DNA from: Candidatus Iainarchaeum sp. | GTDB lineage: Archaea; Iainarchaeota; Iainarchaeia; Iainarchaeales; 1-14-0-10-31-34 | Direction of reading: 5' to 3' | Length of the DNA stretch: 64,000 bases | Assembly (NCBI GenBank): GCA_017609625.1 | Contig: JAFCDN010000010.1 | Coordinates: 9,153 to 73,152 of the forward strand | Shown here: one piece after another, positions 17,618 to 45,802 of the stretch | Position numbering within the stretch: the stretch's first letter is position 1 | Layout of the letters: each line of letters starts with the position of its first letter | Notes under the pieces: model-generated | The model's database searches: none | Seen by the model: the letters and a program-made list of their open reading frames with translations, nothing else | What the model was told of the DNA's origin: nothing | Program-made: the position numbers and the translations under genes

Positions 17618-17631
17618 CCAGAGGAAATTTT

Positions 17632-18870: not shown

Positions 18871-20298
18871 AACAGAATGCACTGCATTTTTTTTTGTTTC
18901 AGGAAAATCTGTCCTAAAATGGCATCCGCGGGATTCTTCTCTATTCAAAGCAGATTCAATAATTTTTTCAGCCAAAAAAGTTGAATTATTTTCCTGCATT
19001 TTCCTGATTTCTTGCAGAGCTTTCTTTAATCCATTTTCATTTCTTTGAATTCCAACAAAATTCCGCATGAGCTCTTTTAAATTATTCAAATTAAAATCTG
19101 AATTTGATTCTTTTGTTTTTAATTCAATTTTTGTTTTACTTTTTTCATTTTTTTCCTTCAAAGAATTCCTGCCCGCAATCGAACCAAAAACCATTGCTTC
19201 TAATAAAGAATTGCTTGCCAGCCTGTTTGCTCCGTGCAGGCCGGAACAAGAGCATTCCCCTGCAGCAAAAATGTTTCTAATGTTGGTTCTTGCATTTTCA
19301 TCTATTTTTATTCCTCCAATGGAATAATGCGCTGCAGGTTCTATTTCAATTGCCTTTTCTTCTATTTTTAATCCAAGTTCCCTTGTTTTCTTATAGATGC
19401 TTGGAAACCTTTGTTTTAAATTCTCTATTTTGGTGCAGTCCAAAAAAACTTTTCTTCCGGAATTAATCTGCAAAAAAATTTCCTGCGAAACAATGTCTCT
19501 TGTGGCTAAGTCTTTTCCTTCAAATTTTCTCATAAATTTTTCATTTAAATCATTTACCAAAAAAGCGCCTTCTCCTCTCAAAGTTTCTGAAAGCAGAAAA
19601 TTGTTTCCTTTAATTGTGGTTGGATGGAACTGTTCAAACTCCAAATCCATTAAATGAACCCCTGCTTTAAGTGCAATAGAATTTGCTTCTCCTAAGTTTC
19701 CTTTAGGATTAGTGCTTTTGCCGTAAAGAGAAGAATATCCGCCGGAAGCAAAAACCAGTGAATTAAATTTTGCAGTGAAATCTTCAAACACTGCGGCTTT
19801 TCCAGAATTATTTTCAATTATCACTTCTTTTAGTGTTTGTTCAGGAAAAAAATGAATATTTTTTTCTTTTGCGAGTTTAAAATAAAATTTTGTTATTTCT
19901 CTCCCTATGTTGTCCCCGTCTGCATGCAATACCCTGTTTTTTGAATGCCCTGCTTCTAATCCAAGGCTTATTCCTTTTTCATTTTCATCAAATTCAAATC
20001 CTTGTTCAATCAATTCCAGAACTTTTTCTTTTCCTTTTTCTACAAGAATTTTAACGATTTTTTCTTCGCATAATCCTGCACCTGCTCTAACTGTATCATT
20101 AAAGTGTTCTTTAACCAGATCGTTTTTTGCTATTGCGGCAGAGATTCCTCCCTGTGCATTAAAGCTGCTTGATTCAAAACTTTTTTTTTCTTCGGAAAAA
20201 AAGACTGCGGTATTTTTTTCTTTTGTTGTTTCGATTGCAGTGCTTAACCCTGCAAGCCCTCTTCCTATAATTACTGAATCAAAAAATTCTTCTTCCAT
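18859..20298 (-). CDS. nadB: L-aspartate oxidase-like FAD flavoprotein (NadB / fumarate-reductase flavoprotein family)
   Basis: DSVIIGRGLAGLSTA, FHPTT, RGEGAFL, HYSIGGIKID, and AAGECSCSGLHGANRLASNSLLE. The 479-aa length fits NadB better than SdhA. Confidence 0.6.
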   Translation of the reverse strand: MEEEFFDSVIIGRGLAGLSTAIETTKEKNTAVFFSEEKKSFESSSFNAQGGISAAIAKNDLVKEHFNDTVRAGAGLCEEKIVKILVEKGKEKVLELIEQGFEFDENEKGISLGLEAGHSKNRVLHADGDNIGREITKFYFKLAKEKNIHFFPEQTLKEVIIENNSGKAAVFEDFTAKFNSLVFASGGYSSLYGKSTNPKGNLGEANSIALKAGVHLMDLEFEQFHPTTIKGNNFLLSETLRGEGAFLVNDLNEKFMRKFEGKDLATRDIVSQEIFLQINSGRKVFLDCTKIENLKQRFPSIYKKTRELGLKIEEKAIEIEPAAHYSIGGIKIDENARTNIRNIFAAGECSCSGLHGANRLASNSLLEAMVFGSIAGRNSLKEKNEKSKTKIELKTKESNSDFNLNNLKELMRNFVGIQRNENGLKKALQEIRKMQENNSTFLAEKIIESALNREESRGCHFRTDFPETKKNAVHSVLSE

Positions 20299-30977: not shown

Positions 30978-31724
30978 ATGAAATTAGTTTTAGATGATGC
31001 AACTCAATTCAAGAAAGCAATTGATGCAATCTCTGTTTTAATTGATGAAGCAGAAGTAATTGTTTCAAAAGACGGATTAAAAGTTAAGGCAACAGACCCT
31101 TCTCAGATTTCAATGATTGATTTTAAAATGCCAAAAAGTGCTTTCTCTGAATATACAATAGAAAACGAAACAAAGCTTGGAATAGATTTGAATTATTTAA
31201 GCCAGGTATTAAACAGAAGCAAAGCAAAAGAAAAATTAATCCTGGAACTGCAGGAAAAAGAATCAAGGTTAAAGGTTCAGTTGAAAGGAAATTCTGTCAG
31301 GACTTTTTCTGTTCCGCTTATAGATATTTCTTCTGCTGACCTTCCAACTCCAAAAGTTGAGTTTGATGCAGTAATAAAAGCAAAAGCAAACTTAATTCGA
31401 GACGGATTAAAAGATTCTTCTTTGGTTAGCACGCATGTAACTTTAGGAATCACTTCAAAAAACTTTTTTATTAAAGCAAGCTCTTCTAAAGGAGAAACAG
31501 TAAATGAAATAACAAAAGAAGACAAAGACTTAAAGGAATTAAATGCAAAAAAAGAATGCTATGCAATGTTTCCTTTGGATTATCTGCAGGACATGCTTAA
31601 AGCAACTGAAGCAGATACAATAGTTGAATTGTCTTTGAAAAGCAATGCTCCAGTGAAAATAAACTATTTAGTAGGAAAAGCAGAATTAGAATACTTTTTG
31701 GCTCCAAGAATAGAGTCATCCTAA
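30978..31724 (+). CDS. pcn: DNA polymerase sliding clamp PCNA (paralog 1)
   Basis: MKLVLDDATQFKKAIDAISVLIDEAEVIVSKDGLKVKATDPSQISMIDF..., a ~248-aa length, and a C-terminal ...FLAPRIE. RBS aaaggtga. Confidence 0.85.
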   Translation: MKLVLDDATQFKKAIDAISVLIDEAEVIVSKDGLKVKATDPSQISMIDFKMPKSAFSEYTIENETKLGIDLNYLSQVLNRSKAKEKLILELQEKESRLKVQLKGNSVRTFSVPLIDISSADLPTPKVEFDAVIKAKANLIRDGLKDSSLVSTHVTLGITSKNFFIKASSSKGETVNEITKEDKDLKELNAKKECYAMFPLDYLQDMLKATEADTIVELSLKSNAPVKINYLVGKAELEYFLAPRIESS

Positions 31725-32974: not shown

Positions 32975-33157
32975 ATGTCTTTTTCAAATGTAATTGCAGG
33001 TGTGCTGGCAGGAGCAATAGCTTTTCTTTCAAACTCTTTAGTTCAGTTTCTGTTAAATCAAAAAGTAGATTTTCTGGAAGCATTTCTTACAGCTTTAATT
33101 ATTGCAGTAATTTTTTTTCTTATTACTTTCCGTTTTTCCAAAAATAAGAGCCTTTAA
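32975..33157 (+). CDS. Small membrane protein (hypothetical)
   Basis: 60-aa ORF with two hydrophobic helices. Weak support. Confidence 0.2.
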   Translation: MSFSNVIAGVLAGAIAFLSNSLVQFLLNQKVDFLEAFLTALIIAVIFFLITFRFSKNKSL

Positions 33158-34004
33158 ACGGGTCAATGTGAATAAACGCTCTGTCGATTTCTTCCATTGA
33201 TTCAATTGAGTATTGAACATTTTTTCCAATTGAATGTGCTTTCTGCACTGAAATGCTTTCATCTACAACAACATGAATTTCAACCTGAACCAAAACCCCT
33301 AAATGCTGTGCTTTAATGTCATGAACTGATTTAATTCCTTCAACTTTTGTTGCTTTTCTTTTAATTTCTTCTATTAATTTTTTTGAAGGGGCTTTTCCGA
33401 TTAATTGATTAGAACTTTCTAATGAAATTTTCACTCCGCTCCACACAATATAAAAAGAAATCAACAAAGCCATTAATGGATCCAAAAAAGAATAGTTATT
33501 CATTGCTCCAAAGATTCCGATTAAAGCTGCAACAGAAATTAATACATCAACTTTGCTGTCTTTTGCTATTGCAATTAAAGCAGTGCTTTTTGTTTTCTTT
33601 CCGACTTTTTTAGTGTAGACTGCCAAAATCACTTTTACTATAATGCTAATAAACAAAACTACAAGTGCGAGAAACCCAAATTTTATTGTGGTTCCAGAAA
33701 TCAACTTTAAAATTCCTTCTTTTGCTAATTCAATTCCAATCACTGCAACCAGCACTCCAATAACCAGTCCTGCAATGGATTCTGCTCTTTCATGCCCAAA
33801 TGGATGGCATAAATCAGGCTTTTTGCATGCAACCCTTACAGCAATTAAAGTAATTGCAGAAGAAAGAATATCTGAAAGAGAATTCAATGAATCTGCAATC
33901 AAAGAAAAGCTTCCTGAAAGAATCCCAATAAAAATTTTAATTAAAAAAAGAAAAATATTTCCTGAGAGATTCAGCAATGAAACAAACTTTTTTTCTTTTT
34001 CCAT
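33123..34004 (-). CDS. Cation diffusion facilitator (CDF) family metal efflux transporter
   Basis: IKIFIGILSGSFSLIADSLNSLSDILSS...HPFGHERAESIAGL, six TM helices, and a C-terminal cytoplasmic domain. Confidence 0.85.
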   Translation of the reverse strand: MEKEKKFVSLLNLSGNIFLFLIKIFIGILSGSFSLIADSLNSLSDILSSAITLIAVRVACKKPDLCHPFGHERAESIAGLVIGVLVAVIGIELAKEGILKLISGTTIKFGFLALVVLFISIIVKVILAVYTKKVGKKTKSTALIAIAKDSKVDVLISVAALIGIFGAMNNYSFLDPLMALLISFYIVWSGVKISLESSNQLIGKAPSKKLIEEIKRKATKVEGIKSVHDIKAQHLGVLVQVEIHVVVDESISVQKAHSIGKNVQYSIESMEEIDRAFIHIDPFKGSYFWKNGK

Positions 34005-34093: not shown

Positions 34094-34705
34094 ATGATTT
34101 TTATGTTTGAAGTTAATTTAATTGAAGTTTTTATTTTAGGCCTGTTATTTGGTTTTGGTCCCTGCACTGTGTTCTGTGCCCCAATTTTGACTCCAATGGT
34201 TTTATCCAGCGCAAAATCAGCAAAAGAAGGACTTTTCGAAGGAATTTCTTTTAGTTTAGGCAGGCTTTTAAGTTATTCTGTTTTAGGAGCTGCAGCAGCT
34301 TTTATCGGAAGCAAGATTAGCACTATAATGCCTCCTTGGTTTTTTGGATTGTTTATAATTGTTTTAGGAATTCTAATTTTATTGAAAAAAACCCCAAAAC
34401 TTTGTGGGGTTTTCTCTAAATACAAAGGAGTTCACGCTGCATTTGTTACAGGAGTTTTTGTAGGGTTTGCTCCGTGCTATCCTTTGGTTGCGGCATTATC
34501 GCTTGCAGCAGTTTCTGGGTCAGTTTTTTTAGGTGCATTAATTGGATTTGTTTTTGGTTTGGGAACAATGCTTTCGCCTTTGCTGTTAATCAGCCTTGCC
34601 GCAGGAAAATGGGCTTCTTTTTCAATACAGTTCCAAAAAACAAACACAATAATCAGCGGGCTATTCCTGATTTTTTTGGGCGCAATAACTTTGCTTGCAG
34701 TCTAG
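34094..34705 (+). CDS. CcdA/DsbD-family thiol:disulfide transmembrane electron-transfer protein (DsbD_2-like)
   Basis: Two G-x-x-PC motifs in TM helices (LLFGFGPCTVFCAPILTP and FVGFAPCYPLVAAL), with about 6 TM helices. Confidence 0.45.
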   Translation: MIFMFEVNLIEVFILGLLFGFGPCTVFCAPILTPMVLSSAKSAKEGLFEGISFSLGRLLSYSVLGAAAAFIGSKISTIMPPWFFGLFIIVLGILILLKKTPKLCGVFSKYKGVHAAFVTGVFVGFAPCYPLVAALSLAAVSGSVFLGALIGFVFGLGTMLSPLLLISLAAGKWASFSIQFQKTNTIISGLFLIFLGAITLLAV

Positions 34706-34706
34706 T

Positions 34707-35090
34707 TTAAGATTCTTCTAAAAGGCTGTCAATTTTCCAGGCTTTTTCTTCTTTTACAAAAAAGATGTTTCCTTTTGAAGTGTTTAAAATCATTTCTTCA
34801 TTTTGAACCACAACTATTTCTGAAACATATTCAGCTGAAACCAGTTCTTCAAATTCATTGCTTTCTACAGCCCATTTTTTGAATAAATCAAAAGAGTTTT
34901 TGAATTTGTTTTCCTTAAACTCAGAAGAAAAACAGTTCCAAGCGAAATCCAAATCATTTCCTGCAGCTGCTTTTTTTAAATTCTCAAAAGTGTAAATCGG
35001 TGCAACAGGATCTTTATATTCTGCTTTTTGAGTGCAGCCAAAAGAAAAAAATAAAACAAAAAGCAAAATCAATGCAAAAACTTTTTTCAT
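34707..35090 (-). CDS. Putative lipoprotein / secreted protein
   Basis: Signal peptide with a lipobox-like LFFSFGC. Confidence 0.35.
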   Translation of the reverse strand: MKKVFALILLFVLFFSFGCTQKAEYKDPVAPIYTFENLKKAAAGNDLDFAWNCFSSEFKENKFKNSFDLFKKWAVESNEFEELVSAEYVSEIVVVQNEEMILNTSKGNIFFVKEEKAWKIDSLLEES

Positions 35091-35158
35091 ACTCTCATTT
35101 AATTTTTTAGAACAAATCCTTAATAAATAAGCTTTGGTTATTATATAAGGTTTTTTCT

Positions 35159-36169
35159 TTGAAGAGAATCACTTTGTTGAGAAGAACTTTTCAGATAATT
35201 TCATTCATTTTGATAGTATATCTTGGGGTAATTGTATCACAATTGATTGCAATGGAAGTATTGCCTCCTGCTTTAAGTGCAGCTGAATTCAAGGATGCAA
35301 CAGGCCCGGCATTAGAAAAAGACACTACAGGAAAAGTTGAATTGACAGGAGGTCTTTATGGGCCGGTAAAAACATGCAGATATGCCCAAGGAGATGCAGA
35401 ACTCTTTCAGGGCTGTGCATTATATTTCATATCCAGAAGTTTAACTTATCTGCCTCCAATCGAATTCATTTTGCCTTTTATTGTTTTTTTGCTTTTAGCT
35501 TTTTTTATTTTTGGTAGGGCGTGGTGCGGCTGGATTTGCCCTATTGGATTTTTTTCTGAAATAATCAACAGCATTAGAAGGGTTTTAGGAATAGGTTATC
35601 TTACTTTTTCTCCGCGAACTAATAATTTTCTTTTAAACGTGCGCTATGGCATGCTTACTTTGATTGTTTTGATTTCACTTGCAATTTTTTTCCCTGCAAT
35701 GGTTCCTTTCCAAAAAGATTTGTTAGTGTCTAGTTGTCAGCTCTGTCCTGTGCGATTTATTTTTCAGTTCCTGGCAGGACAGATTCCAATATTTTTCTCT
35801 TTTGATTCAATAATAGTAACTTTGTTTTCAATAGTGGGAATGATTTTATTTTTGTTTTTAATTTCTGGTGTGTTATTCAGAAAACCTTGGTGCAGAATCT
35901 GCCCTTCAGGTGCAATAGCTTCTTTTTTCAACAAAACCAGTTTGCTAACAAAAGAAAAAGATGTAAAAAAATGCACTAAATGCGGAATCTGCAAAAGAAT
36001 CTGTCTGGTTCAGAACACTCATGTTTATGATGAAAAAGAAAGCAAGGAATTAAACAATGCAAACTGCATCCGTTGTTTTAGGTGTGTAGAACACTGCCCT
36101 GAAAAAGACTGCCTAAAAGTAAAGTTTTTGGGAAAAACTCTTTACAGCAGCAACATTAAAAACAGGTGA
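35159..36169 (+). CDS. NapH/MauN-like membrane polyferredoxin (CGWICP motif plus 2x[4Fe-4S])
   Basis: TM helices with GRAWCGWICPIG and KPWCRICPSG, and a C-terminal CTKCGICKRIC...NCIRCFRCVEHCP ferredoxin-type domain. Confidence 0.7.
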   Translation: MKRITLLRRTFQIISFILIVYLGVIVSQLIAMEVLPPALSAAEFKDATGPALEKDTTGKVELTGGLYGPVKTCRYAQGDAELFQGCALYFISRSLTYLPPIEFILPFIVFLLLAFFIFGRAWCGWICPIGFFSEIINSIRRVLGIGYLTFSPRTNNFLLNVRYGMLTLIVLISLAIFFPAMVPFQKDLLVSSCQLCPVRFIFQFLAGQIPIFFSFDSIIVTLFSIVGMILFLFLISGVLFRKPWCRICPSGAIASFFNKTSLLTKEKDVKKCTKCGICKRICLVQNTHVYDEKESKELNNANCIRCFRCVEHCPEKDCLKVKFLGKTLYSSNIKNR

Positions 36170-36173
36170 ATTA

Positions 36174-37073
36174 ATGAAAAAGATTTTCTTTCTTCTATCA
36201 ATTTTTTTATTATTTTTTCCTTTTTGTTCAGCCCATGCATGGGAAGAACTAAATCAGATTTTTAAATGTGAACAGCCGGCAAAAATAAGCATTGGAGAAG
36301 TAAAAGAAACAAAAGACGGTTTTTATTTTTCTGTTTTTGTTTCAAACAATTCTTTAACTGCAACAAAAGAATGTGCTCCTTGGAGAAACAAAATCCAGAA
36401 CTCTAAAATTGTTTTATTTAACGGAAATGAAGAAAATCTTTTTGAAGTTTTAGTTGAGCCGGAAAAGCAGACAATAAAAATAGATGAAGAAAGTGCTTTC
36501 AAAATAACAGTAAAAAGAATCAAACCAGTTTATTATGAAACACTTTTGGATTTCAGGTTTTTTTCTGACCAGATTAATTTAGTTAAACCTATTTTTGTTA
36601 AAATTCCAAATGATGTTTCCTCAAAAAAAGCAGGGGTTTTTCTTGGAGAAGATTTTCCTATAGTTTTTGCCAGTGCAACAGAGCCTGATGAAATAACTTT
36701 TCAGAGAGGAAAAGAAGGAGAATTTAAACTCTTTTTGAGAAACGCAAGCAAAATTGATTTGCATAATGTAAAACTGAAAATAATTGAAAGTGATTTTGAA
36801 GTTGAAATTTTTCCGGAAGAATTTGAGGAAATGAAAGCAAATGAAATAAGAAGCTTTACTATTTCAGCAAAAGAAACAACAGATAAGCCTGTCGGGCAGT
36901 ACAAGATTTTGTTTGAAATTACTGCAGAAGAGTTCCCTTATTCTTTGACAAAAAACATCTGGATAACTGTTGTTTTAGAAGACCTTTTTGTTTACCTTTT
37001 TGCAGGAATAATAATTTTATTAATCGCTTTGGTTTTGTTCAGATACAAAAAGTTTTTTTCAGCAAAAAACTAG
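36174..37073 (+). CDS. Secreted protein with a C-terminal membrane anchor (hypothetical)
   Basis: Signal peptide MKKIFFLLSIFLLFFPFCSAHA and a C-terminal TM LFVYLFAGIIILLIALVLF followed by a basic tail. Confidence 0.35.
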   Translation: MKKIFFLLSIFLLFFPFCSAHAWEELNQIFKCEQPAKISIGEVKETKDGFYFSVFVSNNSLTATKECAPWRNKIQNSKIVLFNGNEENLFEVLVEPEKQTIKIDEESAFKITVKRIKPVYYETLLDFRFFSDQINLVKPIFVKIPNDVSSKKAGVFLGEDFPIVFASATEPDEITFQRGKEGEFKLFLRNASKIDLHNVKLKIIESDFEVEIFPEEFEEMKANEIRSFTISAKETTDKPVGQYKILFEITAEEFPYSLTKNIWITVVLEDLFVYLFAGIIILLIALVLFRYKKFFSAKN

Positions 37074-37616
37074 TCAGCATTTCGGCTGAATTTCTTTTTT
37101 CTTGCATGTCTGATAAAAAAAGATTTCTTCGCTGAAAGTTCCAATCAACACCTGAAACTTTTGTGCGATATCATATGTTTCTACTCCGCAGCACACTTCA
37201 AATTCATGTGTTTTTGTTGCATCAGCGTAATCAAATGATTCTAATTTTCCTTCAGTTACTCCAAAATAGCTTTCTTCTTTATCGTAGTAATTTACTCCAT
37301 CAATTATTTTCACGCAATGGAATTCTCTTTCAAAAAGCCATTGATTCCATTCATCTATTTTTGGCAGTTCAACTTCAAAATAAAGTTTTAGATCACAGTT
37401 TTCTTCTTTGCATTCTTCGCAGAACTCCTGCATGTCTTCAATTTTTCCTTTGCTGTTTTCTTCTTTCCATTCAAGTTTATTAAGAGAAACATCTTCTGCA
37501 GAGAATGCCTGAAATGAACCAATGCTTCCGATTATCAAAAACACTCCAAGCAATATAAGACAAAAAATAAATGCAATTTTTTTTCTTCCAAGTTTTTTCA
37601 AATCTTCTTTAAGCAT
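37074..37616 (-). CDS. Membrane-anchored extracytoplasmic Cys-containing protein (hypothetical)
   Basis: N-terminal TM IAFIFCLILLGVFLIIGSIG, and 8 Cys in the extracellular part (CEECKEENC...CC...C). Confidence 0.3.
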   Translation of the reverse strand: MLKEDLKKLGRKKIAFIFCLILLGVFLIIGSIGSFQAFSAEDVSLNKLEWKEENSKGKIEDMQEFCEECKEENCDLKLYFEVELPKIDEWNQWLFEREFHCVKIIDGVNYYDKEESYFGVTEGKLESFDYADATKTHEFEVCCGVETYDIAQKFQVLIGTFSEEIFFYQTCKKKEIQPKC

Positions 37617-37896
37617 TCTTAATTACCTTTTTTGAGTAAAAAAATATACAGAGAGCTGTTAATATAAGTATTGCAGTGCTCCATGGAGTAAAAGTACAAT
37701 GAGAATAATAACCTAAAAGATTTTCTTTGCTTGCAGGCAAAGGAAGCACAGTTGAAACTGCTGAGATTAAAAGCAGTGCAATAAGAATTTTTTTAAAGTC
37801 TATTTTCATCAACATCCTAAAAAAATAACTCCCAAATGTTTTTAACTTTCTTGCACTTATTTTTAAACAGATGAAACTTTTTACCTTATCCAACAC
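37609..37896 (-). CDS. Small two-TM membrane protein (hypothetical)
   Basis: 95-aa ORF overlapping the downstream gene by 8 nt, with two hydrophobic helices. Confidence 0.25.
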   Translation of the reverse strand: MLDKVKSFICLKISARKLKTFGSYFFRMLMKIDFKKILIALLLISAVSTVLPLPASKENLLGYYSHCTFTPWSTAILILTALCIFFYSKKVIKNA

Positions 37897-38905
37897 AAGG
37901 CGTGCAGTGCAGATAATTGCTTTTTTTCTTTTAGTTTACACTTCTATTTTTTTAACCACAGGAATAGATATTGAAGGTCTGCCTTTTGTAAGTGTGCCAA
38001 AAGATGTTGTAAGACCTGAATGGTATGCTCCGGAAAAAGGCTATACTGAAGTTTTTGATACTTATCTTCCAATAAAAAGCTGCAGGTTTATTGCAGATGA
38101 AAACAGGGCTTTTAGAGCATGTTTTATGCATTTTGCAAATGAAAGCATTGTCTGGAATTCCCCTCCAGAAGAATGGATACCTCATTTACTGTTATTTCTT
38201 TTCGCTGCATTAATTTTTGCACGAGCCTGGTGCGGCTGGATTTGCCCTTTAGGTTTTATTTCTGAAAGCGCTTTTTGGATTAGAAAAAAACTCGGTTTTA
38301 AGGAAAGGAAAATTCCTGAAAAAATAAAACAATATATTCCTGCATTTAAATATGGTTTTCTTTCTTTTGTGTTTCTACTTTCGCTTTTAGTGATTCTTCC
38401 AATTGGTCTTTCAGCTTTTCAGGGAGAATTTTCAATTGTAAACTGTGCGACCTGCCCTGCAAGAACAATCTTTCCTTTGTTTGCAGGAAAATTTTCACTG
38501 GATTTTTCTTTCAGCAATCCGGTTTACTTTTTGTTTTCAATAATTGGAATAGCTTTTTTGCTTGTTTTTATTTCTAGTTTTTTCTTTTCCCGCCCTTGGT
38601 GCAGGATCTGTCCTTCTGGAGCGCTGCTATCTCTTTTAAATCCGGTTTCTTTCCTTAGAAAAGAAAAAGAAAAAGAGAAATGCACTTCATGCGGAATCTG
38701 CGAGAGAATCTGCCCGATGGATAACACTACAATCCAGGAAAAGAAAGGAGATTCAATTAACACAGGAAACTGCATCCGTTGTTTTAGGTGTGTAGAACAT
38801 TGTCCTGAAGAAGACTGCCTTAAAGTAAAGTTTTTTGGAAAAACAATTTATAAATCAAAATATAAAGAGAAAACTGAATCGCTTTTGGATTCAACTAAAA
38901 AATAA
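37871..38905 (+). CDS. NapH/MauN-like membrane polyferredoxin, paralog 2
   Basis: ARAWCGWICPLG, RPWCRICPSG, and CTSCGICERICP...NCIRCFRCVEHCP. Its 3' ~85 nt are nearly identical to those of the 35159..36169 paralog. Confidence 0.7.
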   Translation: MKLFTLSNTRRAVQIIAFFLLVYTSIFLTTGIDIEGLPFVSVPKDVVRPEWYAPEKGYTEVFDTYLPIKSCRFIADENRAFRACFMHFANESIVWNSPPEEWIPHLLLFLFAALIFARAWCGWICPLGFISESAFWIRKKLGFKERKIPEKIKQYIPAFKYGFLSFVFLLSLLVILPIGLSAFQGEFSIVNCATCPARTIFPLFAGKFSLDFSFSNPVYFLFSIIGIAFLLVFISSFFFSRPWCRICPSGALLSLLNPVSFLRKEKEKEKCTSCGICERICPMDNTTIQEKKGDSINTGNCIRCFRCVEHCPEEDCLKVKFFGKTIYKSKYKEKTESLLDSTKK

Positions 38906-38949
38906 AGTTTATTAAATGTAAATGTCTTAATAATTCAAGAAGTGTTTTT

Positions 38950-40299
38950 ATGCAGGTTTTGAACAATGTAAAAAGAGCATTGCTTGGAGATGTTACACAA
39001 GAAAAAGAAAACCCGATTTTAGAGAGAAGATATGAAGAGGAACCTTATTCAGAGCCTGGAAAAACAGAAGAATTCAGAAAAAAAATCCTTAACGCCTCAA
39101 TGCAAAACCTGAAATCAATGCAAAGCAAAAAAAACAGGCCAAAAGCAATGGCTTACTTTGACAAGATTGTAACAGGTTCCAGAGAAGAAGAAATAAAAAA
39201 ATCAGGAAAAAAAGTTTTAGGTTATTTTTGTTCTTTTATTCCAGAAGAAATCCTTTATGCAGCAGATGTGATTCCAATAAGATTATGTGCTGGCTCTTTT
39301 GATACAATGGATGTTGCAGAAGGAATACTGCCAAGAGATGTCTGCCCTATGGTGAAATCTTCTTTTGGATTCAAAGTTTTGGGTTTGCCTTTGATGGAGT
39401 TATGCGAGATTGCAGTTGTTCCAACTTCTTGTGATGCAAAAAAGAAAATGGGTTATTATTTAGCAGATTACATGCCTGTCTGGATGCTGCATTTGCCTCA
39501 TAAAAAAGACAGCGATAAGTCAGTTAAATTATGGCTTGAAGAAATGTATGACTTTAAGGATGCTGTTGAAAAATTTGCTGGAAAAAAGATTTCAAAGAAA
39601 GCGCTTGAAGATTCAACTAAACTCTTAAGAAAAAGAACAGATGCTTTCAGAAGATTCTTAGAACTTCGTAAAGCAAAGCTTATTCCAATTTCAGAAAAAG
39701 ATTTTTTGCTTGTAGTTTATGTAAGCTTTTTTGATGATGCAGAAAGATGGACAAAAAATGTTTCTTTATTGTGCGATGAAATTGAAAAAAACATTGAACG
39801 CGGAATTGGAGTTCATTCAAAAGACACTATAAGATTATTATTAACCGGCTCTGCAACAATCTGGCCAAACTTCAAGATTTTAGATATTATAGAAAAAGCA
39901 GGAATGGCAATTGCAGTTGACCAGAGCTGTGTTGGAACATGGCACTTGTATGAACCAGTTGAAGTAGAAGAATACTCTTTGCCTGGGTTAATGCAAGCAA
40001 TAGCTGAACGCTATCTTTCTCCAAGCATCTGCCCCTGCTTTACAGTAAATGATGACAGGTTTGATAATTTAACTGAATTAATCAAAGCCTATGAAGTTGA
40101 CGGAGTCATTTACCATATTTTAAGATTGTGCCAGCTTTTTGATATGGAAGCAGAAACAGTAAAAAAAATCCTTGAAAAAGAAAACATTCCAATGCTAAAA
40201 GTTGTGACAGACTACAGCAAAGAAGATGTAGGCCAGCTGTCTACTAGAATTGAAGCATTCAAAGAAATGATTTTGATTAGAGAGGAAGGAGAAAAATGA
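38950..40299 (+). CDS. 2-hydroxyacyl-CoA dehydratase / benzoyl-CoA reductase (HgdB/BcrB-like) family protein
   Basis: GYFCSFIPEEILYAADVIPIRLCAG plus C-terminal Cys ligands (CPCF...; ILRLCQ). It overlaps the activase gene by 4 nt (ATGA). Confidence 0.65.
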   Translation: MQVLNNVKRALLGDVTQEKENPILERRYEEEPYSEPGKTEEFRKKILNASMQNLKSMQSKKNRPKAMAYFDKIVTGSREEEIKKSGKKVLGYFCSFIPEEILYAADVIPIRLCAGSFDTMDVAEGILPRDVCPMVKSSFGFKVLGLPLMELCEIAVVPTSCDAKKKMGYYLADYMPVWMLHLPHKKDSDKSVKLWLEEMYDFKDAVEKFAGKKISKKALEDSTKLLRKRTDAFRRFLELRKAKLIPISEKDFLLVVYVSFFDDAERWTKNVSLLCDEIEKNIERGIGVHSKDTIRLLLTGSATIWPNFKILDIIEKAGMAIAVDQSCVGTWHLYEPVEVEEYSLPGLMQAIAERYLSPSICPCFTVNDDRFDNLTELIKAYEVDGVIYHILRLCQLFDMEAETVKKILEKENIPMLKVVTDYSKEDVGQLSTRIEAFKEMILIREEGEK

Positions 40300-41090
40300 T
40301 TACTGCAGGAATTGATGTTGGAAGCGTTACAACAAAATGCGTTTTATTTGATGGAAAAAAAGTTTTAGGAAAAGCTTTAACCCAGACAAAAGCAGATCCA
40401 AATCTTGCAGCAGAATTTGTATACAAAAAAGCTTTGGAAGAAAACAAGATTTCAAAAGAAAAGATTTCTTTTATTGTTTCAACAGGCTATGGAAGAAGAG
40501 CAATAGATTATGGAAATACCAGTGTAACAGAAATAATGGCTAATGCAACCGGAGCTTACTGGGTTGGATGCCCTAAAGGAGAAATCAAAACAATAATTGA
40601 TTTAGGAGGCCAAGACAGCAAAGTGATTGCTTTAGAGAAAGGCGGGCATATAAGAAATTTTGTTATGAACGATAAATGCAGTGCAGGCACAGGCAGATTC
40701 CTTGAAAACATGGCTAATGTTTTAGGAGTTTCATTAGAAGAACTTGGAAGTTTTTCCTTGAAATCAAAAAATCCTATTGCAATCAACAGCACCTGCACTG
40801 TTTTTGCAGAATCAGAAATAATTTCTTTGATTTCCAAGAGAGCAAAAAAAGAAGACATTATTGCAGGGCTTCATATTTCTATAAGCAAAAAAATTGTTCA
40901 CATGGCCAGGGAATTAGGGGTAAGAGAACCTGTTTTTTTTGACGGCGGGGGAAGCAAAAACATTGGAATAAAGAAAGCTCTTGAAAATGCGCTTGGAGTA
41001 GAAATTTATGTTCCGGAAAACTCGCAGTTTATTATTGCTTTAGGTGCAGCAATAGTTGCATTTAAACTAGCAACAAAACAGCAGAAATAA
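40296..41090 (+). CDS. CoA-substrate-specific enzyme activase (HgdC/BadF/BcrA-like ASKHA ATPase with a bridging [4Fe-4S])
   Basis: MITAGIDVGSVTTKCVLFDG..., IDLGGQDSKVIAL, and MNDKCSAGTGRFLENMA. Confidence 0.85.
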   Translation: MITAGIDVGSVTTKCVLFDGKKVLGKALTQTKADPNLAAEFVYKKALEENKISKEKISFIVSTGYGRRAIDYGNTSVTEIMANATGAYWVGCPKGEIKTIIDLGGQDSKVIALEKGGHIRNFVMNDKCSAGTGRFLENMANVLGVSLEELGSFSLKSKNPIAINSTCTVFAESEIISLISKRAKKEDIIAGLHISISKKIVHMARELGVREPVFFDGGGSKNIGIKKALENALGVEIYVPENSQFIIALGAAIVAFKLATKQQK

Positions 41091-41093
41091 AAT

Positions 41094-43757
41094 TTATGCT
41101 CCGCCAAATATTTTGAATGCAATTGAGCCAATGATTGCAATTACAATCACTGCATAAACAAAAATCATTAAATCAGATGGTTCACTTACAACAAGAGTGG
41201 TTGTTACAATCCTGCTTCTAGTGAATTCTCTTGCTTCAACTTCAAAGCTTAATTCAGTGCTTCCAAGCTCTGCATCTTCTGCAGTGGTTAAAGTTGCAAC
41301 AAAACTTTTTATTTCATTTGGCTTTAATTCATCAATTATTTCTGGTTCAATCTTTTTTACTATTTCAGTGTTATCTGCATTCACTTTCAAATTATGCAGC
41401 CCTTCTGTATGACCATTTCTAACAAAAATTCTTACTTCAATTGTTTCTCCAGGGCGCATTTCAATTTTATCTCTGTCTCCTATGCTTACAGCAAAAGGAA
41501 TTGAATCTGGATCTAAAATCTTTATTTCTACTCCTTCTTTTGCAAAAACATCAATTGAAGATGTTTTAAATCCTATTTTTTCTGCAGTGAGTTTTAGAGT
41601 TCCTTTTCTTGCGGTTAAAACAGCTTCTCCGTTTGAGTTAGTAGTTGCAGTTTGATTCAAATAAGCTATTTTCACTCCAGAAACTGGCTTTGAATCTTTA
41701 TCAACAACTTTTGCAGTAAAAGATTGTTTGTCAACAATAGTTTGAGGAAGAATTACAGACATTTCTTTTAAATCAGGTGCAGTATTATGCTTGCATTCAG
41801 AATTGCATTTCCCTGGGTTTTCACAAACATCTTCAGTTAAAGAATCATTATCATTACATTCAGCATCATTTTTACATGCAGTTTCTGCACAAGAACCATT
41901 ACAGCAAATTTTTTCTCCAACACAACCACAATCTTTCTGGCAGGTAGAACAATTTTCTGTTCCAGTACATTGCCCGTCCCCGCAAGTCAAACTGCAATCA
42001 TTGTCATTTTCATTAGTGCATCCAGCCGGACAGCAGCCATCATTGTCTGCACATTCTTTTGGTGCATAAGAACAAGATGCACTGCAAGAGTTTGGATTAT
42101 TACAAGAATCTGTAGTGCATGCATCTGAATCATTACAAGCAGAATTATCTGCACAAGCCGGAGTAATACAAGAACCATCACAGCATAATCCTGTACCACA
42201 ACTGCAGTCTTCTGAACAGCTTGAACAATTTTCTCCTACTCCTGAATTACATTGTGAATTTCCACAGCAATCACTTACTTCACAATCAGAACAACCAGAA
42301 CTGCATTCCCCTGTTTCACAAACTTCATTCCCGCAAATCAAACCACAATCATTATCATTTGCTGTAGTGCATCCTGAAGGACAGCAGGAATCTGAATTTA
42401 CACAAGAAGTAATTGCAGGATTAGAACAAGATGAACTGCATGTTCCTGCATTATTGCAGGAATCATTTGTACAAGAATCTGAATCATCGCAGCCAGAATT
42501 ATTTGAACAGGTTGGTTCTTCGCAAGAGCCAGAACAGCAAATTCCGGTTGTACAACTACAATCAGCAGAGCAACTTTCACAATTTTCTGCTCCATTGCAT
42601 GTTCCGTCCCCGCATTCTGCACTGCAGTCATTATCGTTTCCTGTTGTACATCCGCTTGGACAGCACCCGTCAGAGTTTACACAGAAAGTTATTTCAGGAA
42701 AAGTGCATTCTGCACTGCAAGTTCCTGCATTACTGCAAGTGTTTGTAGTGCATGCATCTGAATCATCACATTCAGAGTTTTGTGAACAATCTGCTTCAAC
42801 GCAGGAGCCTGAGCAACAGATGTCATCTCCTATACAACTACAATCTTGTGCACAAGTAGAACAGTTTTCTGTTCCATTACAGCTTCCATCCCCGCATACT
42901 GCTTCGCAATCATTATCATTTAATATTGTGCATCCGCCAGGGCAACACCCGTCAGAGTTAATGCAGGAAGTTATTGGAGGATTAGAACAAGATGAACTGC
43001 ATGTTCCTGGATTATTGCATGTGTCTGTAGTACATGAATCTCCGTCAGAACAGTCTGGGTTGCTTATGCAGGTTGGTGCAATGCAAGATCCAGAACAACA
43101 GATATCCCCTCCATTACAACCACAATCTTGTGCACAGCTTGAACATGTTTCTCCTGGATTGCAGGTTGAATCCCCGCAGCAACCAGATAAACCACAGTCC
43201 GGGTCTTCTCCTTCTTCACAATATGCAGGGCAGTTTCCATTGCATCCGTCTGGAGTGCAGCTTCCACTAGTCACTTGGATATTTGTTGCATCAACATATC
43301 TGCTTGAGTAACTGTCTGGTTTTACTTTAAAACGCATACTGTAAGTTCCTGGAGCAGCATTTTTGATGGTTATTGTTACATCAAAGTCTCTTGACTGGTG
43401 AATTGGAATTCCCTGGCTTGAAGGGTTAATGTTTATTTCAAAATCACAGTTTGGGCATCCAGTGTAAGTGCAGGTTGTACAGCTGTAAACTGAAACAACT
43501 ACATTAGAAAAATTTGAGCTCCATGGGTTGCACTTCCCACTGGCATTCTGGAAAGTTTGTCTGTTTTCAACATTTATTGTAAACGATATTTGGTTTCCAT
43601 TATAATTTGGGCCGTCAGTAATCGTTATTACAACCGGATCAAGACAGCCATACCCTGCCTGGCTTCCTCCTGGAAGAACATCACTACACACGTGAGCAAA
43701 AGCATTAGAAAAAAAGAACAGAAGAAAAACTAAAACTAAAAAAATCTTTTTACTCAT
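41094..43757 (-). CDS. Giant cysteine-rich cell-surface protein with about six ~90-aa tandem slime-mold-type (Dictyostelium CxDxxxCTxDxC) repeats, an Ig/CarboxypepD_reg-like domain and a C-terminal TM anchor
   Basis: Signal peptide MSKKIFLVLVFLLFFFSNAFA. Repeats of ...CGDGSCNGTENCSTCAQDCSC...CCSGSC...C..NS.CDDSDACTTNTCSNAGTCS..C..P.IT.C.NSDGCCP.GCT..NDNDC. C-terminal LMIFVYAVIVIAIIGSIAF. Confidence 0.6.
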   Translation of the reverse strand: MSKKIFLVLVFLLFFFSNAFAHVCSDVLPGGSQAGYGCLDPVVITITDGPNYNGNQISFTINVENRQTFQNASGKCNPWSSNFSNVVVSVYSCTTCTYTGCPNCDFEININPSSQGIPIHQSRDFDVTITIKNAAPGTYSMRFKVKPDSYSSRYVDATNIQVTSGSCTPDGCNGNCPAYCEEGEDPDCGLSGCCGDSTCNPGETCSSCAQDCGCNGGDICCSGSCIAPTCISNPDCSDGDSCTTDTCNNPGTCSSSCSNPPITSCINSDGCCPGGCTILNDNDCEAVCGDGSCNGTENCSTCAQDCSCIGDDICCSGSCVEADCSQNSECDDSDACTTNTCSNAGTCSAECTFPEITFCVNSDGCCPSGCTTGNDNDCSAECGDGTCNGAENCESCSADCSCTTGICCSGSCEEPTCSNNSGCDDSDSCTNDSCNNAGTCSSSCSNPAITSCVNSDSCCPSGCTTANDNDCGLICGNEVCETGECSSGCSDCEVSDCCGNSQCNSGVGENCSSCSEDCSCGTGLCCDGSCITPACADNSACNDSDACTTDSCNNPNSCSASCSYAPKECADNDGCCPAGCTNENDNDCSLTCGDGQCTGTENCSTCQKDCGCVGEKICCNGSCAETACKNDAECNDNDSLTEDVCENPGKCNSECKHNTAPDLKEMSVILPQTIVDKQSFTAKVVDKDSKPVSGVKIAYLNQTATTNSNGEAVLTARKGTLKLTAEKIGFKTSSIDVFAKEGVEIKILDPDSIPFAVSIGDRDKIEMRPGETIEVRIFVRNGHTEGLHNLKVNADNTEIVKKIEPEIIDELKPNEIKSFVATLTTAEDAELGSTELSFEVEAREFTRSRIVTTTLVVSEPSDLMIFVYAVIVIAIIGSIAFKIFGGA

Positions 43758-45012: not shown

Positions 45013-45076
45013 AGAAATGATTTAAAAGCATTAATGAGCATAATGTAATTAAATAGAATCAGTGGGAGAGTTTTGT

Positions 45077-45802
45077 ATGGCAATAGAATTAAAGAAAGCA
45101 GAATCTTGGGCAAGAGCAATTAATGCAATTTCAACTTTTATTTCTGAAGGAAACTTTCGTTTTAATGATTCAGGAATAAGTTTTAAGGCAATTGACCCAA
45201 GCCAGATTGTTTTAGTTGATTATTCTGTTGCAAAAAGCTCTTTTGACAAATACTCTATTGAACCAACTTATGTTGGAGTAGATTTGGTTGAATTAAACAA
45301 AATAATGTCCAGAATCCTTCAGCATGACAAAATGACTCTGGATTTAACTGAAAACGAAATGTCAATCCATTTTACTGGAGAGCTTTCAAGAAGTTTCAGA
45401 CTTCCCTTAATTGATGTTTCAGAACAGGAAATCAATGTTCCTACAACAAAATTTGACACTACAATTCAAATCAATGCAAGAATGTTTAAAGAAGCATTAA
45501 AAGACGCTTCTTTGTTTGGCAGTTCAGTTGTTTTAAGAGCAAAAGGAAACCAGTTTATGATTGAAGCAAGAGGTTCTTCCGGCACTTTAAAGACTGTTGC
45601 AAAAGAAGCAAAAAATGTTTTAGTTAAAACTTCTTCAGAGGTTGTAAGCAAATACTCTTTGAACTTCCTTTCAAATATCATAAAAGAAGCAGACTCTGAT
45701 TCAATGATTAAATTAGAATTAAAAGGCGATGCCCCCATGAAAGTTTCTTATTCAATCGGAGACAACAAAATCAACTTCCATTTAGCGCATATGATCCTCT
45801 GA
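45077..45802 (+). CDS. DNA polymerase sliding clamp PCNA (paralog 2)
   Basis: MAIELKKAESWARAINAISTFISEGNFRFNDSGISFKAIDPSQIVLVDY...RLPLIDVSEQE... Low identity to PCNA-1, but it shares the AIDPSQI and PLIDxS blocks. Confidence 0.8.
   Translation: MAIELKKAESWARAINAISTFISEGNFRFNDSGISFKAIDPSQIVLVDYSVAKSSFDKYSIEPTYVGVDLVELNKIMSRILQHDKMTLDLTENEMSIHFTGELSRSFRLPLIDVSEQEINVPTTKFDTTIQINARMFKEALKDASLFGSSVVLRAKGNQFMIEARGSSGTLKTVAKEAKNVLVKTSSEVVSKYSLNFLSNIIKEADSDSMIKLELKGDAPMKVSYSIGDNKINFHLAHMIL

Follow-up and report, generated by a model that had tools for sequence, protein, structure and literature searches.

Polyferredoxins with outward cysteines, a double-cubane cluster protein and giant Cys-rich surface proteins: a candidate redox module of DPANN archaea and its bacterial relatives

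Which function could require a cell to encode, side by side, an ATP-dependent iron-sulfur (Fe-S) system of the cytoplasm, polyferredoxins of the membrane and a giant cysteine-rich protein of the cell surface? This question is raised by ten open reading frames (ORFs; g1 to g10) at positions 34094-43757 of a 64-kb stretch of Candidatus Iainarchaeum sp. DNA (contig JAFCDN010000010.1, positions 9,153 to 73,152; the whole stretch, numbered 1-64000, is termed the window). A preliminary description of the window had placed ten genes there and had suggested that low-potential electrons of the cytoplasm are relayed across the membrane, either to form or isomerize disulfides or to load metal on the secreted Cys-rich protein. 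The ORF list and the translations bear out the ten genes and the order claimed for them. The genes are tightly packed on both strands, with intergenic distances of -8 to +68 bp. Independent contigs contain the gene set again at 41-69% protein identity; this recurrence, together with the very low E-values of the domains, places the block far beyond chance. Domains were called by Pfam and NCBIfam profile scores relative to the curated cutoffs.

Polyferredoxins, double-cubane protein and DsbD_2-type membrane protein

Two of the genes encode paralogous NapH-like polyferredoxins that are 42% identical to each other. Polyferredoxin A (g3; 35159-36169, + strand, 336 aa, Fer4_5 and Fer4_10) adjoins the DsbD_2 gene, and polyferredoxin B (g7; 37871-38905, + strand, 344 aa, Fer4_5) is encoded directly upstream of the double-cubane cluster protein (DCCP) gene. 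NapH-like proteins are known as modular transmembrane electron conduits (10.1101/2021.01.07.425746, eLife 2021). Each of the two paralogues combines the Fer4_5 region with two CxxCxxCxxxC [4Fe-4S] motifs, and both have the architecture of NapH/MauN proteins, i.e. four transmembrane (TM) helices, two CX3CP motifs and a pair of [4Fe-4S] motifs on the cytoplasmic side. In case of g7, the inner motifs are CGWICP and CRICP, the ferredoxin motifs read CxxCxxCxxxCP twice, and the AlphaFold2 model has four TM helices (predicted local distance difference test, pLDDT, 88.8). Beyond this architecture there are four further cysteines, which are C71 and C84 in the helix 1-2 loop and C192-x-x-C195-P in the helix 3-4 loop of g7, and C73, C86, C193 and C196 in the outer loops of g3. 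Positively charged residues (Lys, Arg) accumulate at the N-terminus of g7, in its 2-3 loop and in its C-terminal domain, and therefore both Cys-bearing loops are predicted to face outward. Across 37 aligned homologues, both ferredoxin motifs are invariant, as are the inner motifs CGWxCP and CRxCP, and the four outer cysteines are invariant or nearly so, whereas these four are absent from E. coli NapH and from a control polyferredoxin. The NapH models are missed by far (g7 96.8 bits, cutoff 213, on TIGR02163 and 89.2, cutoff 234, on NF007013; g3 73.9 and 70.1, respectively). The earlier label "NapH/MauN-like" thus holds for the architecture, but in terms of family, g3 and g7 are predicted members of a distinct NapH-like subfamily that is defined by four outward cysteines, and not NapH itself. 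The expectation that they are not ordinary NapGH or Nos components is borne out by the gene content: NapA, NapG, NosZ or any Nap/Nos reductase was not found in the 64-kb window, and neither NapG nor a periplasmic reductase (NapAB, Nos, Mau) in the window or the related loci. No solved structure resembling the membrane part of g7 was found, and an exact-sequence look-up of g7 gave no record.

The partner encoded downstream of g7 belongs to a family that was reportedly described structurally in 2018. The protein g8 (38950-40299, + strand, 449 aa; HGD-D, E 2.8e-99) passes the NCBIfam double_cubane equivalog NF040772 with 371.7 bits (cutoff 350), and it aligns with the DCCP of Carboxydothermus hydrogenoformans (PDB 6ENO, 7YYL) at E ~2e-87 over 383 residues and with every cluster Cys matched, namely by C94, C113, C132, C161, C327, C361/363 and C394. 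Except for C113, these positions (C94, C132, C161, C327, C361, C394) are invariant in every full-length NapH-linked homologue that scores as DCCP. The Cys spacing agrees to within one residue with the 7-Cys motif of Haft, the literal regular expression failing by that one residue. As the window has only one HGD-D gene, there is no alpha/beta catalytic pair. By this profile and these cluster ligands, g8 is predicted to be a double-cubane cluster protein and not a dehydratase subunit, and the previous designation as 2-hydroxyacyl-CoA-dehydratase-like has to be given up. Candidate assignments that were tried and rejected are 2-hydroxyacyl-CoA dehydratase (HadC 123 bits, cutoff 700; HadB 29, cutoff 750) and class I benzoyl-CoA reductase (BzdN 92 bits, cutoff 454; BcrC 62, cutoff 421). 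A metagenome scan with g8 only gave the L001 contig again. The reading frame of g8 overlaps by 4 bp with that of g9 (40296-41090, + strand, 264 aa, E 4e-78), which was correctly recognized as an ATP-dependent activase; it is of the [4Fe-4S] type and corresponds to the DCCP reductase (DCCP-R), as it reaches 262 bits on TIGR00241 (cutoff 125) and matches HgdC, HadI, MbdQ and DCCP-R of the PDB at E 1e-43 to 1e-63 (DCCP-R E 2e-43). DCCP-R spends ATP to push an electron onto the double-cubane cluster (DCC) at very low potential (PMC9351452, PMC7317905), and DCCPs reduce very inert small molecules, while their natural function and partners are not known (PMC7317905). In three related loci, two DCCP paralogues are split by an ORF of 93-113 aa without family (L003 5432-9558, L005 10992-13980, L091 9993-13119), and one of such paired paralogues has no equivalent of C113; the pairing suggests that DCCPs may be heteromeric in these DPANN lineages.

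The first gene of the cluster, g1 (34094-34705, + strand), encodes a six-helix membrane protein of 203 aa. It had been described as CcdA/DsbD-like, and the six helices, the cysteines in TM1 and TM4 and a PF02683 (DsbD_TM/CcdA) score of 50.1 bits (cutoff 27.1) agree with this, but the latter match covers the N-terminal half only, whereas PF13386 (DsbD_2) fits better, with 88.9 bits over the full length. DsbD_2 is a family also called UreH-like, and some of its members are presumably Ni permeases (UreH). The cysteines of g1 form a CX3C motif in TM1 (C24, C28) and a PC motif in TM4 (C128), with C104 in a loop. Among 45 aligned homologues from the neighborhoods, C24 and C28 occur in all, C128 in 44 and C104 in 38, so that the DsbD_2 neighbors appear as one subfamily with an invariant CX3C and a near-invariant PC motif. 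No thioredoxin-fold domain is encoded by g1-g10 or in the neighbor lists, the TrxR-like gene of the window being 17 kb away. That gene belongs to a run of flavoenzyme genes at 16715-20298, 14-17 kb upstream of the cluster, which comprises TrxR-like (Pyr_redox_2), FAD_binding_3 and FAD_binding_2 genes, the last of which resembles fumarate reductase or aspartate oxidase. It is possible that the TrxR-like protein serves as electron source for a CcdA-type carrier.

Conservation of the neighborhood in archaea and bacteria

To what extent do these genes belong together? Protein look-ups and a scan of GTDB genomes yielded 94 loci, in which each NapH-like protein was classed by its outer-Cys signature with a regular expression, and its distance to the closest homologues of DCCP, activase and DsbD_2 was measured. 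In about 23 distinct loci, a NapH-like gene with outer cysteines has a DCCP gene downstream at no more than ~1.3 kb and usually at 1-60 bp, and an activase gene is nearby in nearly all of them (none at L093 and L007). The taxa with this DCCP-type arrangement are DPANN, Bathyarchaeota, Methanobacteriota, Planctomycetota, Armatimonadota, Desulfobacterales, Spirochaetes, Syntrophaceae and Hyphomicrobiales. In about 33 further loci, a DsbD_2 gene follows the outer-Cys NapH-like gene at 0-70 bp and there is no DCCP; these come from sulfur- or iron-oxidizing Gamma- and Betaproteobacteria, Campylobacterota and Zetaproteobacteria. Both arrangements are connected, as many DCCP-type loci also contain a DsbD_2 gene. 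Named strains among the carriers are Dechloromonas agitata and Neptuniibacter for the DsbD_2 type, and Desulfothermus naphthae has the DCCP type. There are exceptions: DsbD_2 is ~1 kb off and DCCP missing in L014, the DCCP gene is ~5 kb away from the NapH-like gene in L022, L051 has neither, and L031 and L043 have a DCCP-family match nearby without an outer-Cys signature that the regular expression detects. In none of 30 control loci, whose NapH-like protein has no outer cysteines, was a DCCP, activase or DsbD_2 gene found. The preliminary description had made its proposal depend on a conserved neighborhood, and the gene set is indeed conserved in related genomes. It had also considered that the pair now assigned to DCCP and activase, then termed HgdBC-like, could elsewhere cluster with CoA metabolism; the pair is instead encoded directly downstream of the NapH-like gene in the ~23 loci, and no CoA-transferase or acyl-CoA metabolism gene was found in the 64-kb window or the listed related loci.

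DPANN loci usually contain a pair of NapH-like paralogues, of which one adjoins the DsbD_2 gene and the other the DCCP gene, and this A/B arrangement is shared by L001, L010, L091 and L095. Moreover, in all seven evaluable DPANN loci, the window included, a giant secreted protein with 7-15% Cys is encoded beside the module, e.g. with 76 Cys in 1086 aa (L001), 38 Cys in a partial protein of 374 aa (L003), 112 Cys in 901 aa and 74 in 663 aa (both L005), 37 Cys in 562 aa (L010) or 289 Cys in 1950 aa (L091). The Cys-rich proteins of the window and of L001, L003, L005, L010 and L091 have in common a His-x-Cys sequence directly after an A-x-A-type cleavage site. A search anchored on the Cys-rich protein led back to the module: the gene of P0123, a member of the g10 N-domain family, is divergent to genes for DsbD_2, a NapH-like protein, two small ORFs, a second NapH-like protein, HGD-D and activase, which is an independent reciprocal confirmation of the link. 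The claimed association with a giant Cys-rich surface protein therefore stands, and on this synteny the surface proteins are predicted to belong to the module.

The bacterial relatives give clues to a function. Carriers of the DCCP-less arrangement include Sulfurimonas, Sulfuricurvum, Thiobacillus, Sedimenticola, Thiodiazotropha, the Solemya symbiont and Mariprofundaceae. A gene for a TonB-dependent receptor lies immediately upstream of the module in Sulfurimonas and the Solemya symbiont and downstream of it in Mariprofundaceae, and the order within the module is in these cases tethered protein, NapH-like protein and DsbD_2. In Neptuniibacter, genes for ExbB, ExbD and TonB come after the module. 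DCCP-less modules that consist of a tethered DUF4198-like protein, an outer-Cys NapH-like protein and DsbD_2 are found at L023 7047-11683 and L036 6995-16503 with the receptor upstream, at L042 3341-8413 with the receptor downstream, and at L030 9183-13709, there followed by ExbB, ExbD and TonB; in L023, the DsbD_2 protein is the sole candidate for an inner-membrane transporter of the locus. The tethered proteins of bacteria have sub-threshold matches to DUF4198 (23 bits, cutoff 34) and to CarboxypepD_reg, and DUF4198 proteins have been experimentally characterized as Ni- or Zn-binding capture proteins (PMC12537917, PMC12663993). DCCP modules of the Desulfobacterota type adjoin genes for TonB-dependent receptors, Peripla_BP_2, FecCD and ABC importers, and also for CobN-type chelatases with ChlI/D-like ATPases. 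No sulfur-oxidation or -reduction genes were found next to the module in the loci examined. In case of Planctomycetota, Armatimonadota and related bacteria, the partners of the DCCP-type module are not Cys-rich, and their mature proteins start with HLCNN[VI]YR after Ala or with HTCHDP after Ser. A signal peptide, the HLCNN[VI]YR sequence and a beta-rich domain characterize the partner proteins of L013 (5757-7809), L014 (6596-7582), L028 (6368-7363) and L093 (5395-6927); HEAT_2 repeats are clear in L013 (6793-7809) and faint in L093, and the L014 and L028 proteins, assessed by alignment only, align closely. For an extracytoplasmic protein, this architecture is unusual. Two bacterial loci have additional neighbors. 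In L094 (7967-18957), on a contig of 657 kb, genes for the tethered protein, NapH-like protein, DCCP and activase are followed by those for a TonB-dependent receptor and a NifH-like protein, and further by two NifD/K-like (Oxidored_nitro) genes and a CobN/Mg-chelatase gene. In L092 (6080-15809), three radical-SAM genes and an amino-acid permease gene flank the NapH-like, DCCP and activase genes, and a second set of HGD-D, DUF2229 and activase lies upstream.

Surface proteins and surrounding window

The largest protein of the cluster is the surface protein g10 (41094-43757, - strand), which has a signal peptide and a C-terminal TM helix. The preliminary description was right about its 887 aa and its approximate Cys content, the exact number being 113, but the six tandem repeats turn out to be about five diverged ones. 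Three parts can be distinguished. The N-terminal domain (residues 1-165; 43263-43757, - strand) has the mature N-terminus His22-Val23-Cys24, encoded at nucleotides 43686-43694. The Cys-rich region (residues 166-665; 41763-43262, - strand) contains 106 Cys in the repeats of ~93 aa, of which four are complete and accompanied by partial copies; one complete repeat, counted by eye, has 20 Cys, and there is no tandem repeat at the DNA level in g10. The C-terminal part (residues 666-887; 41094-41762, - strand) is free of Cys and consists of a CarboxypepD_reg-like domain (PF13620, E 3.5e-7, below the cutoff), a beta domain similar to that of g4 and the TM anchor. The GC content rises to 0.40 over the Cys-rich region. 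Antisense to it, an ORF of 398 aa extends over 42115-43311 (+ strand), which is most simply regarded as a putative artefact of the Cys/Gly/Asp codon composition and not as a gene.

The smaller surface protein g4 (36174-37073, + strand, 299 aa) combines a signal peptide and a beta-rich region with a TM helix at the C-terminus, as anticipated for a secreted protein with C-terminal anchor, and its mature N-terminus is likewise a His (CSA/HAWEEL, the slash marking the cleavage site). Its C-terminal domain and TM helix are homologous to the C-terminus of g10 (BLASTP E 7e-16), and the N-terminal domains of both proteins are homologous as well, albeit more weakly. In g10 and its relatives, the ends are conserved and the middle is variable, with Cys repeats in the window and fn3 domains in L001, and tblastn matches the ends only; such a variable middle between conserved ends fits a stalk that holds a functional tip. 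On these homologies, g10 is a g4 paralogue into which a Cys-rich putative stalk is inserted. Members of the g4-type family adjoin NapH-like genes in archaeal and bacterial loci, there are natural fusions of a g4-type domain with a NapH-like protein (P0041, E 3e-9; P0049), and the Methanobacteriota NapH-like protein of L020 has an N-terminal extension of 320 aa. The quality of the AlphaFold model made from the g4 sequence alone (pLDDT 44.7) was insufficient for a fold comparison. At the tip, the sequence HVC[SN]DV after the Ala of the cleavage site is kept in L001, L003, L010 and six of eight fetched library homologues of the g10 N-domain. More generally, the A-x-A/H context is found in g4, g10 and ~20 homologues, where the mature His1 is judged by the -3/-1 rule alone, and a mature N-terminal His-x-Cys in ~20 partner proteins from archaea and bacteria. 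Experiments have validated a His that becomes N-terminal by removal of the signal peptide as a predictor of metal sites (PMC12537917). The family of the g10 N-domain is very small (18 representatives among 1.84 billion proteins), and searches of a word-indexed database of 5.8 billion proteins with g4 and the g10 N-domain returned the query only or nothing.

The other small proteins agree with what had been described, i.e. a lipoprotein and two small membrane proteins, one with eight outward cysteines. The lipoprotein g2 (34707-35090, - strand, 127 aa) has a signal peptide and a lipobox-like FSFGC sequence, no Pfam or NCBIfam match, and an orthologue in L001 only, there with a canonical LSGC lipobox. 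The protein g5 (37074-37616, - strand, 180 aa) is anchored in type-II fashion by an N-terminal TM helix that is rich in Lys and Arg on its N-terminal side, and it carries the eight outward cysteines; orthologues in L001, L003, L005 and L011 conserve NC, HC and CCG motifs and a C-terminal Cys. The two-helix membrane protein g6 (37609-37809, - strand, ~66 aa) has a GYYSHC motif. Its ORF extends to 37896, and the start is probably Met30 (nucleotide 37809); the 64-aa orthologue of L001 aligns from MKIDF on, and with the longer ORF, g6 would extend into the start of g7. No curated family was found for g2, g4, g5, g6 or g10.

The window that hosts the cluster is AT-rich (~32% GC) and has an archaeal housekeeping content, including genes for Cdc6, aIF2-alpha and an S-layer-like protein; respiratory-chain genes were not found in the window, and neither tRNA genes nor Rfam families were detected in positions 1-64000. 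The closest relatives of the cluster proteins are found in assemblies of Aenigmatarchaeota, Pacearchaeota, Woesearchaeota and Nanoarchaeia, which makes an assignment to DPANN reasonable. Two PCNA paralogues (30978-31724 and 45062-45802, both + strand) bracket the redox cluster at a distance of ~13 kb from each other, and both primase subunits and GINS come after the second one. The divergent neighbor of g1 is a CDF-type cation-efflux gene (Cation_efflux and ZT_dimer; 33123-34004, - strand), to which little weight is given, because L001 does not have it at this position and has TBP upstream instead. A flavin-reductase-like gene (PF01613; 43827-44366, - strand), which comes after a HAD hydrolase gene, ends 69 bp upstream of the start of g10 on the same strand; it could be co-transcribed with g10, and it was not seen in related loci. 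At the far end of the window, an archaeal release factor aRF1 of 776 aa is interrupted by an intein (61623-63953, - strand; eRF1 domains 2 and 3, intein splicing, LAGLIDADG homing-endonuclease and HTH_3 domains).

Possible functions and comparison with known systems

What would such a module be good for? The reading that covers the largest share of the observations in both domains of life is the reductive capture or uptake of a thiol-loving metal, metalloid or metallo-cofactor, and we favor it tentatively, at a confidence somewhat below even. From the predicted localizations, g8 and g9 would be in the cytoplasm, g1, g3 and g7 in the membrane, and g4, g10, g2, g5 and g6 outside. The tethered outer proteins, in which the His-x-Cys motif is observed, would capture the metal or metalloid, the His-Val-Cys tip of g10 being held out on the variable Cys-rich stalk of a g4-type scaffold. 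The NapH-like proteins would then carry electrons between the outer cysteines and the cytoplasmic Fe-S domain, and DCCP-R and DCCP, whose biochemistry is known from homologues and whose connection to the module is suggested by adjacency, would in anaerobes supply electrons of low potential that are boosted by ATP. Finally, the Cys-lined DsbD_2 protein may serve as the passage through the membrane for the reduced species or for reducing equivalents. The bacterial relatives appear to point more to the uptake of a metal or metallo-cofactor than to the handling of disulfides.

Several points weigh against this reductive uptake. Everything above gene identity, including the direction of electron flow and its target, disulfides or metal, we infer from synteny and motifs. 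We know of no metal uptake route that needs reducing power at the level of the DCC, and the role of the DCCP is therefore the weakest link. The TonB context cannot directly be transferred to DPANN archaea, because these cells have no outer membrane, and the proteobacterial branch is only 26-30% identical and may act differently. All DUF4198 matches are below the Pfam cutoff, the partner proteins of Desulfobacterota and proteobacteria have no N-terminal His, and the same is true for small g4-type proteins in several DPANN loci. The even number of 20 Cys in the counted g10 repeat fits a disulfide-knotted module at least as well as a metal sponge.

What alternatives exist for reductive metal uptake? 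The principal one, which takes up the disulfide idea of the preliminary description and which we regard as possible yet unlikely, is a thiol-disulfide machine serving the Cys-rich giants of the surface, in which the NapH-like protein acts like DsbB/VKOR with Fe-S clusters replacing the quinone. Electrons of substrate thiols would pass inward to the activase and be pumped by ATP onto the DCC for disposal, which would permit disulfide formation in an anaerobe without respiratory chain, and the CcdA-like DsbD_2 protein would constitute a reducing isomerase branch. Inward flow is indeed the known direction, from donor via activase to DCC (PMC9351452, PMC7317905), and the outer loops carry C-x12-C and CxxCP motifs, the paired PC-type cysteines of g1 are typical of CcdA/DsbD, and g5 with its conserved outward cysteines could be a carrier. 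The Cys-rich giants in seven of seven DPANN loci, the agreeing reciprocal search and the even Cys count of the g10 repeat would be readily explained. However, the transfer from thiols to a low-potential [4Fe-4S] cluster would be uphill before the ATP step, a thioredoxin-fold partner is missing from the cluster, the bacterial DCCP-type partners have only 3-6 Cys and nevertheless keep His1-x-Cys3, and the TonB-dependent receptors, chelatases and ABC importers of bacteria would be left unexplained. The module might also exchange electrons with an external partner such as sulfide, thiols, polysulfide, a mineral or a host cell for the sake of energy or redox balance, the DCCP being a cytoplasmic terminal reductase or electron source. 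The concentration of the DCCP-less version in sulfur- and iron-oxidizing lineages, the established role of NapH-like proteins as transmembrane conduits (10.1101/2021.01.07.425746), the lack of respiratory-chain genes in the window and the suitability of outer Cys sites for sulfur chemistry would be in line with this. We nevertheless consider it improbable: sulfur-oxidation or -reduction genes do not adjoin the module in the loci examined, a neighborhood of TonB and receptor genes suggests uptake and not respiration, and an ATP cost of moving electrons is hard to square with energy conservation.

It may further be asked whether the link across the membrane is real. DCCP and activase could reduce a small molecule of the cytoplasm with the NapH-like protein as their membrane-bound donor or anchor, and the surface proteins would be incidental. 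Cys-rich surface proteins seem to be common in DPANN genomes, the DCCP has no known physiological substrate, and activases are normally reduced by ferredoxin or flavodoxin. Yet a polyferredoxin without quinone or other partner needs an electron source, and the outward Cys quartet is the only other conserved redox feature; in addition, nearly all loci encode surface partners, at least two lineages have them fused to the NapH-like protein, the search that started from the Cys-rich protein led back to the module, and a DCCP occurs in none of the 30 control polyferredoxin loci. Such a restricted role has a small chance of being correct. A wholly conventional explanation by known pathways, i.e. NapGH or NosR/NosH quinol dehydrogenases combined with a 2-hydroxyacyl-CoA dehydratase or benzoyl-CoA reductase, could draw on the partial Pfam and NCBIfam matches to NapH/MauN, HadC and BzdN models. 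It is extremely improbable and is rejected, because family scores and gene context contradict it: the NapH scores of 74-97 bits are far from the cutoffs of 213-234 and the double_cubane model is passed instead, the outer cysteines are absent from E. coli NapH, and a single HGD-D gene stands in a 64-kb window without NapA, NapG, NosZ, CoA-transferase or acyl-CoA genes.

A more far-reaching possibility is that DCCP-R and DCCP are wired via the polyferredoxin to the outside, as an ATP-driven transmembrane electron pump that would be the first physiological context for DCCPs; we think of this as conceivable but doubtful. Such a pump would deliver electrons below -500 mV to the surface, where they could mobilize or reduce a metal or metalloid on the His-Cys "fishing-rod" proteins, or, alternatively, it would draw electrons inward from surface thiols. 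It would be a new extracytoplasmic redox system for organisms without respiratory chain, DPANN archaea included, and it would have a DCCP-less, TonB-linked cousin in sulfur-oxidizing proteobacteria. Irrespective of the mechanism, the gene linkage across domains gives a testable context for at least one DCCP clade, and it defines a new NapH-like subfamily with outward cysteines as well as a small family of giant surface proteins of DPANN archaea, whose conserved tip resembles a metal site. That genome-reduced DPANN archaea keep a redox apparatus of ~10 kb suggests its importance to them. The data also point to an uncharacterized TonB-dependent uptake system in sulfur-oxidizing bacteria, some of them named strains that may be genetically tractable. 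The component families are each known; what seems new is the partnership, together with the features of the subfamily and the family of surface proteins. The suggestion that the combination is undescribed has held so far: literature searches on double-cubane proteins, polyferredoxins, NapH, CcdA, DPANN, PF13386/UreH-like proteins and TonB found no description of the combination, and none of the uptake locus of sulfur- and iron-oxidizing proteobacteria (tethered protein, NapH-like protein, DsbD_2 and receptor), with most subscription journals outside their coverage, so that an earlier description is possible.

How does the module relate to known systems? The DCCP/DCCP-R pair of C. hydrogenoformans resembles g8 and g9 in the cluster cysteines and by an activase gene that lies immediately downstream here, but the characterized pair is soluble and has no known substrate or partners (PMC7317905), whereas the DCCP gene of the module adjoins that of a membrane polyferredoxin. 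NapH of the NapGH system and NapH-like proteins such as NosR, PceC and those of flavinylated systems share the four TM helices, the two CX3CP motifs and the C-terminal pair of [4Fe-4S] motifs, as well as the modular use as conduit between the cytoplasm or membrane and the outside (10.1101/2021.01.07.425746). In contrast to these systems, there is no NapG or NapA, no FMN-binding domain and no ApbE, and the cytoplasmic partner is a DCCP with its activase, instead of or besides the quinone pool. With CcdA/DsbD, g1 shares the six helices and the Pro-preceded cysteines in TM1 and TM4, but CcdA/DsbD has a single TM1 Cys where g1 has CX3C, and no thioredoxin-like acceptor is encoded near g1. The layout of the NapH-like protein is also similar to that of DsbB/VKOR, with four TM helices and a Cys pair in each outer loop, one of the pairs being a CxxC motif, and it could work by analogy like these proteins, with Fe-S clusters in place of quinone; the homologous four-helix fold with quinone site that characterizes DsbB/VKOR was not found in it.

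A connection of DCCPs with metal transport has precedent. The nearest earlier work, a preprint by Haft on selenocysteine-assisted organometallic (SAO) loci, links NF040772 DCCPs by comparative genomics to the transport of a metal-containing substrate, and the DCCP is proposed to reduce the compound that is imported (10.1101/2022.07.06.499078). The partners described there differ entirely, being an ABC transporter, a MerB-like lyase and selenoproteins; the terms "NapH" and "DsbD" do not occur in the text, and its accessible passages mention no His-x-Cys surface proteins (10.1101/2022.07.06.499078). Related as well are the TonB metal-uptake loci, i.e. the PepSY-like/DUF4198 clusters, Neisseria Zcp and the Ni-binding IsDUF4198. 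The bacterial relatives of the module share with them the order of receptor, tethered DUF4198-like protein and membrane redox protein, the presence or absence of ExbB-ExbD-TonB, and the N-terminal His in many partners. The redox protein, however, is here an Fe-S polyferredoxin with outer cysteines and not of the PepSY type, the archaeal versions have no outer membrane, and the versions of anaerobes add the DCCP together with its activase.

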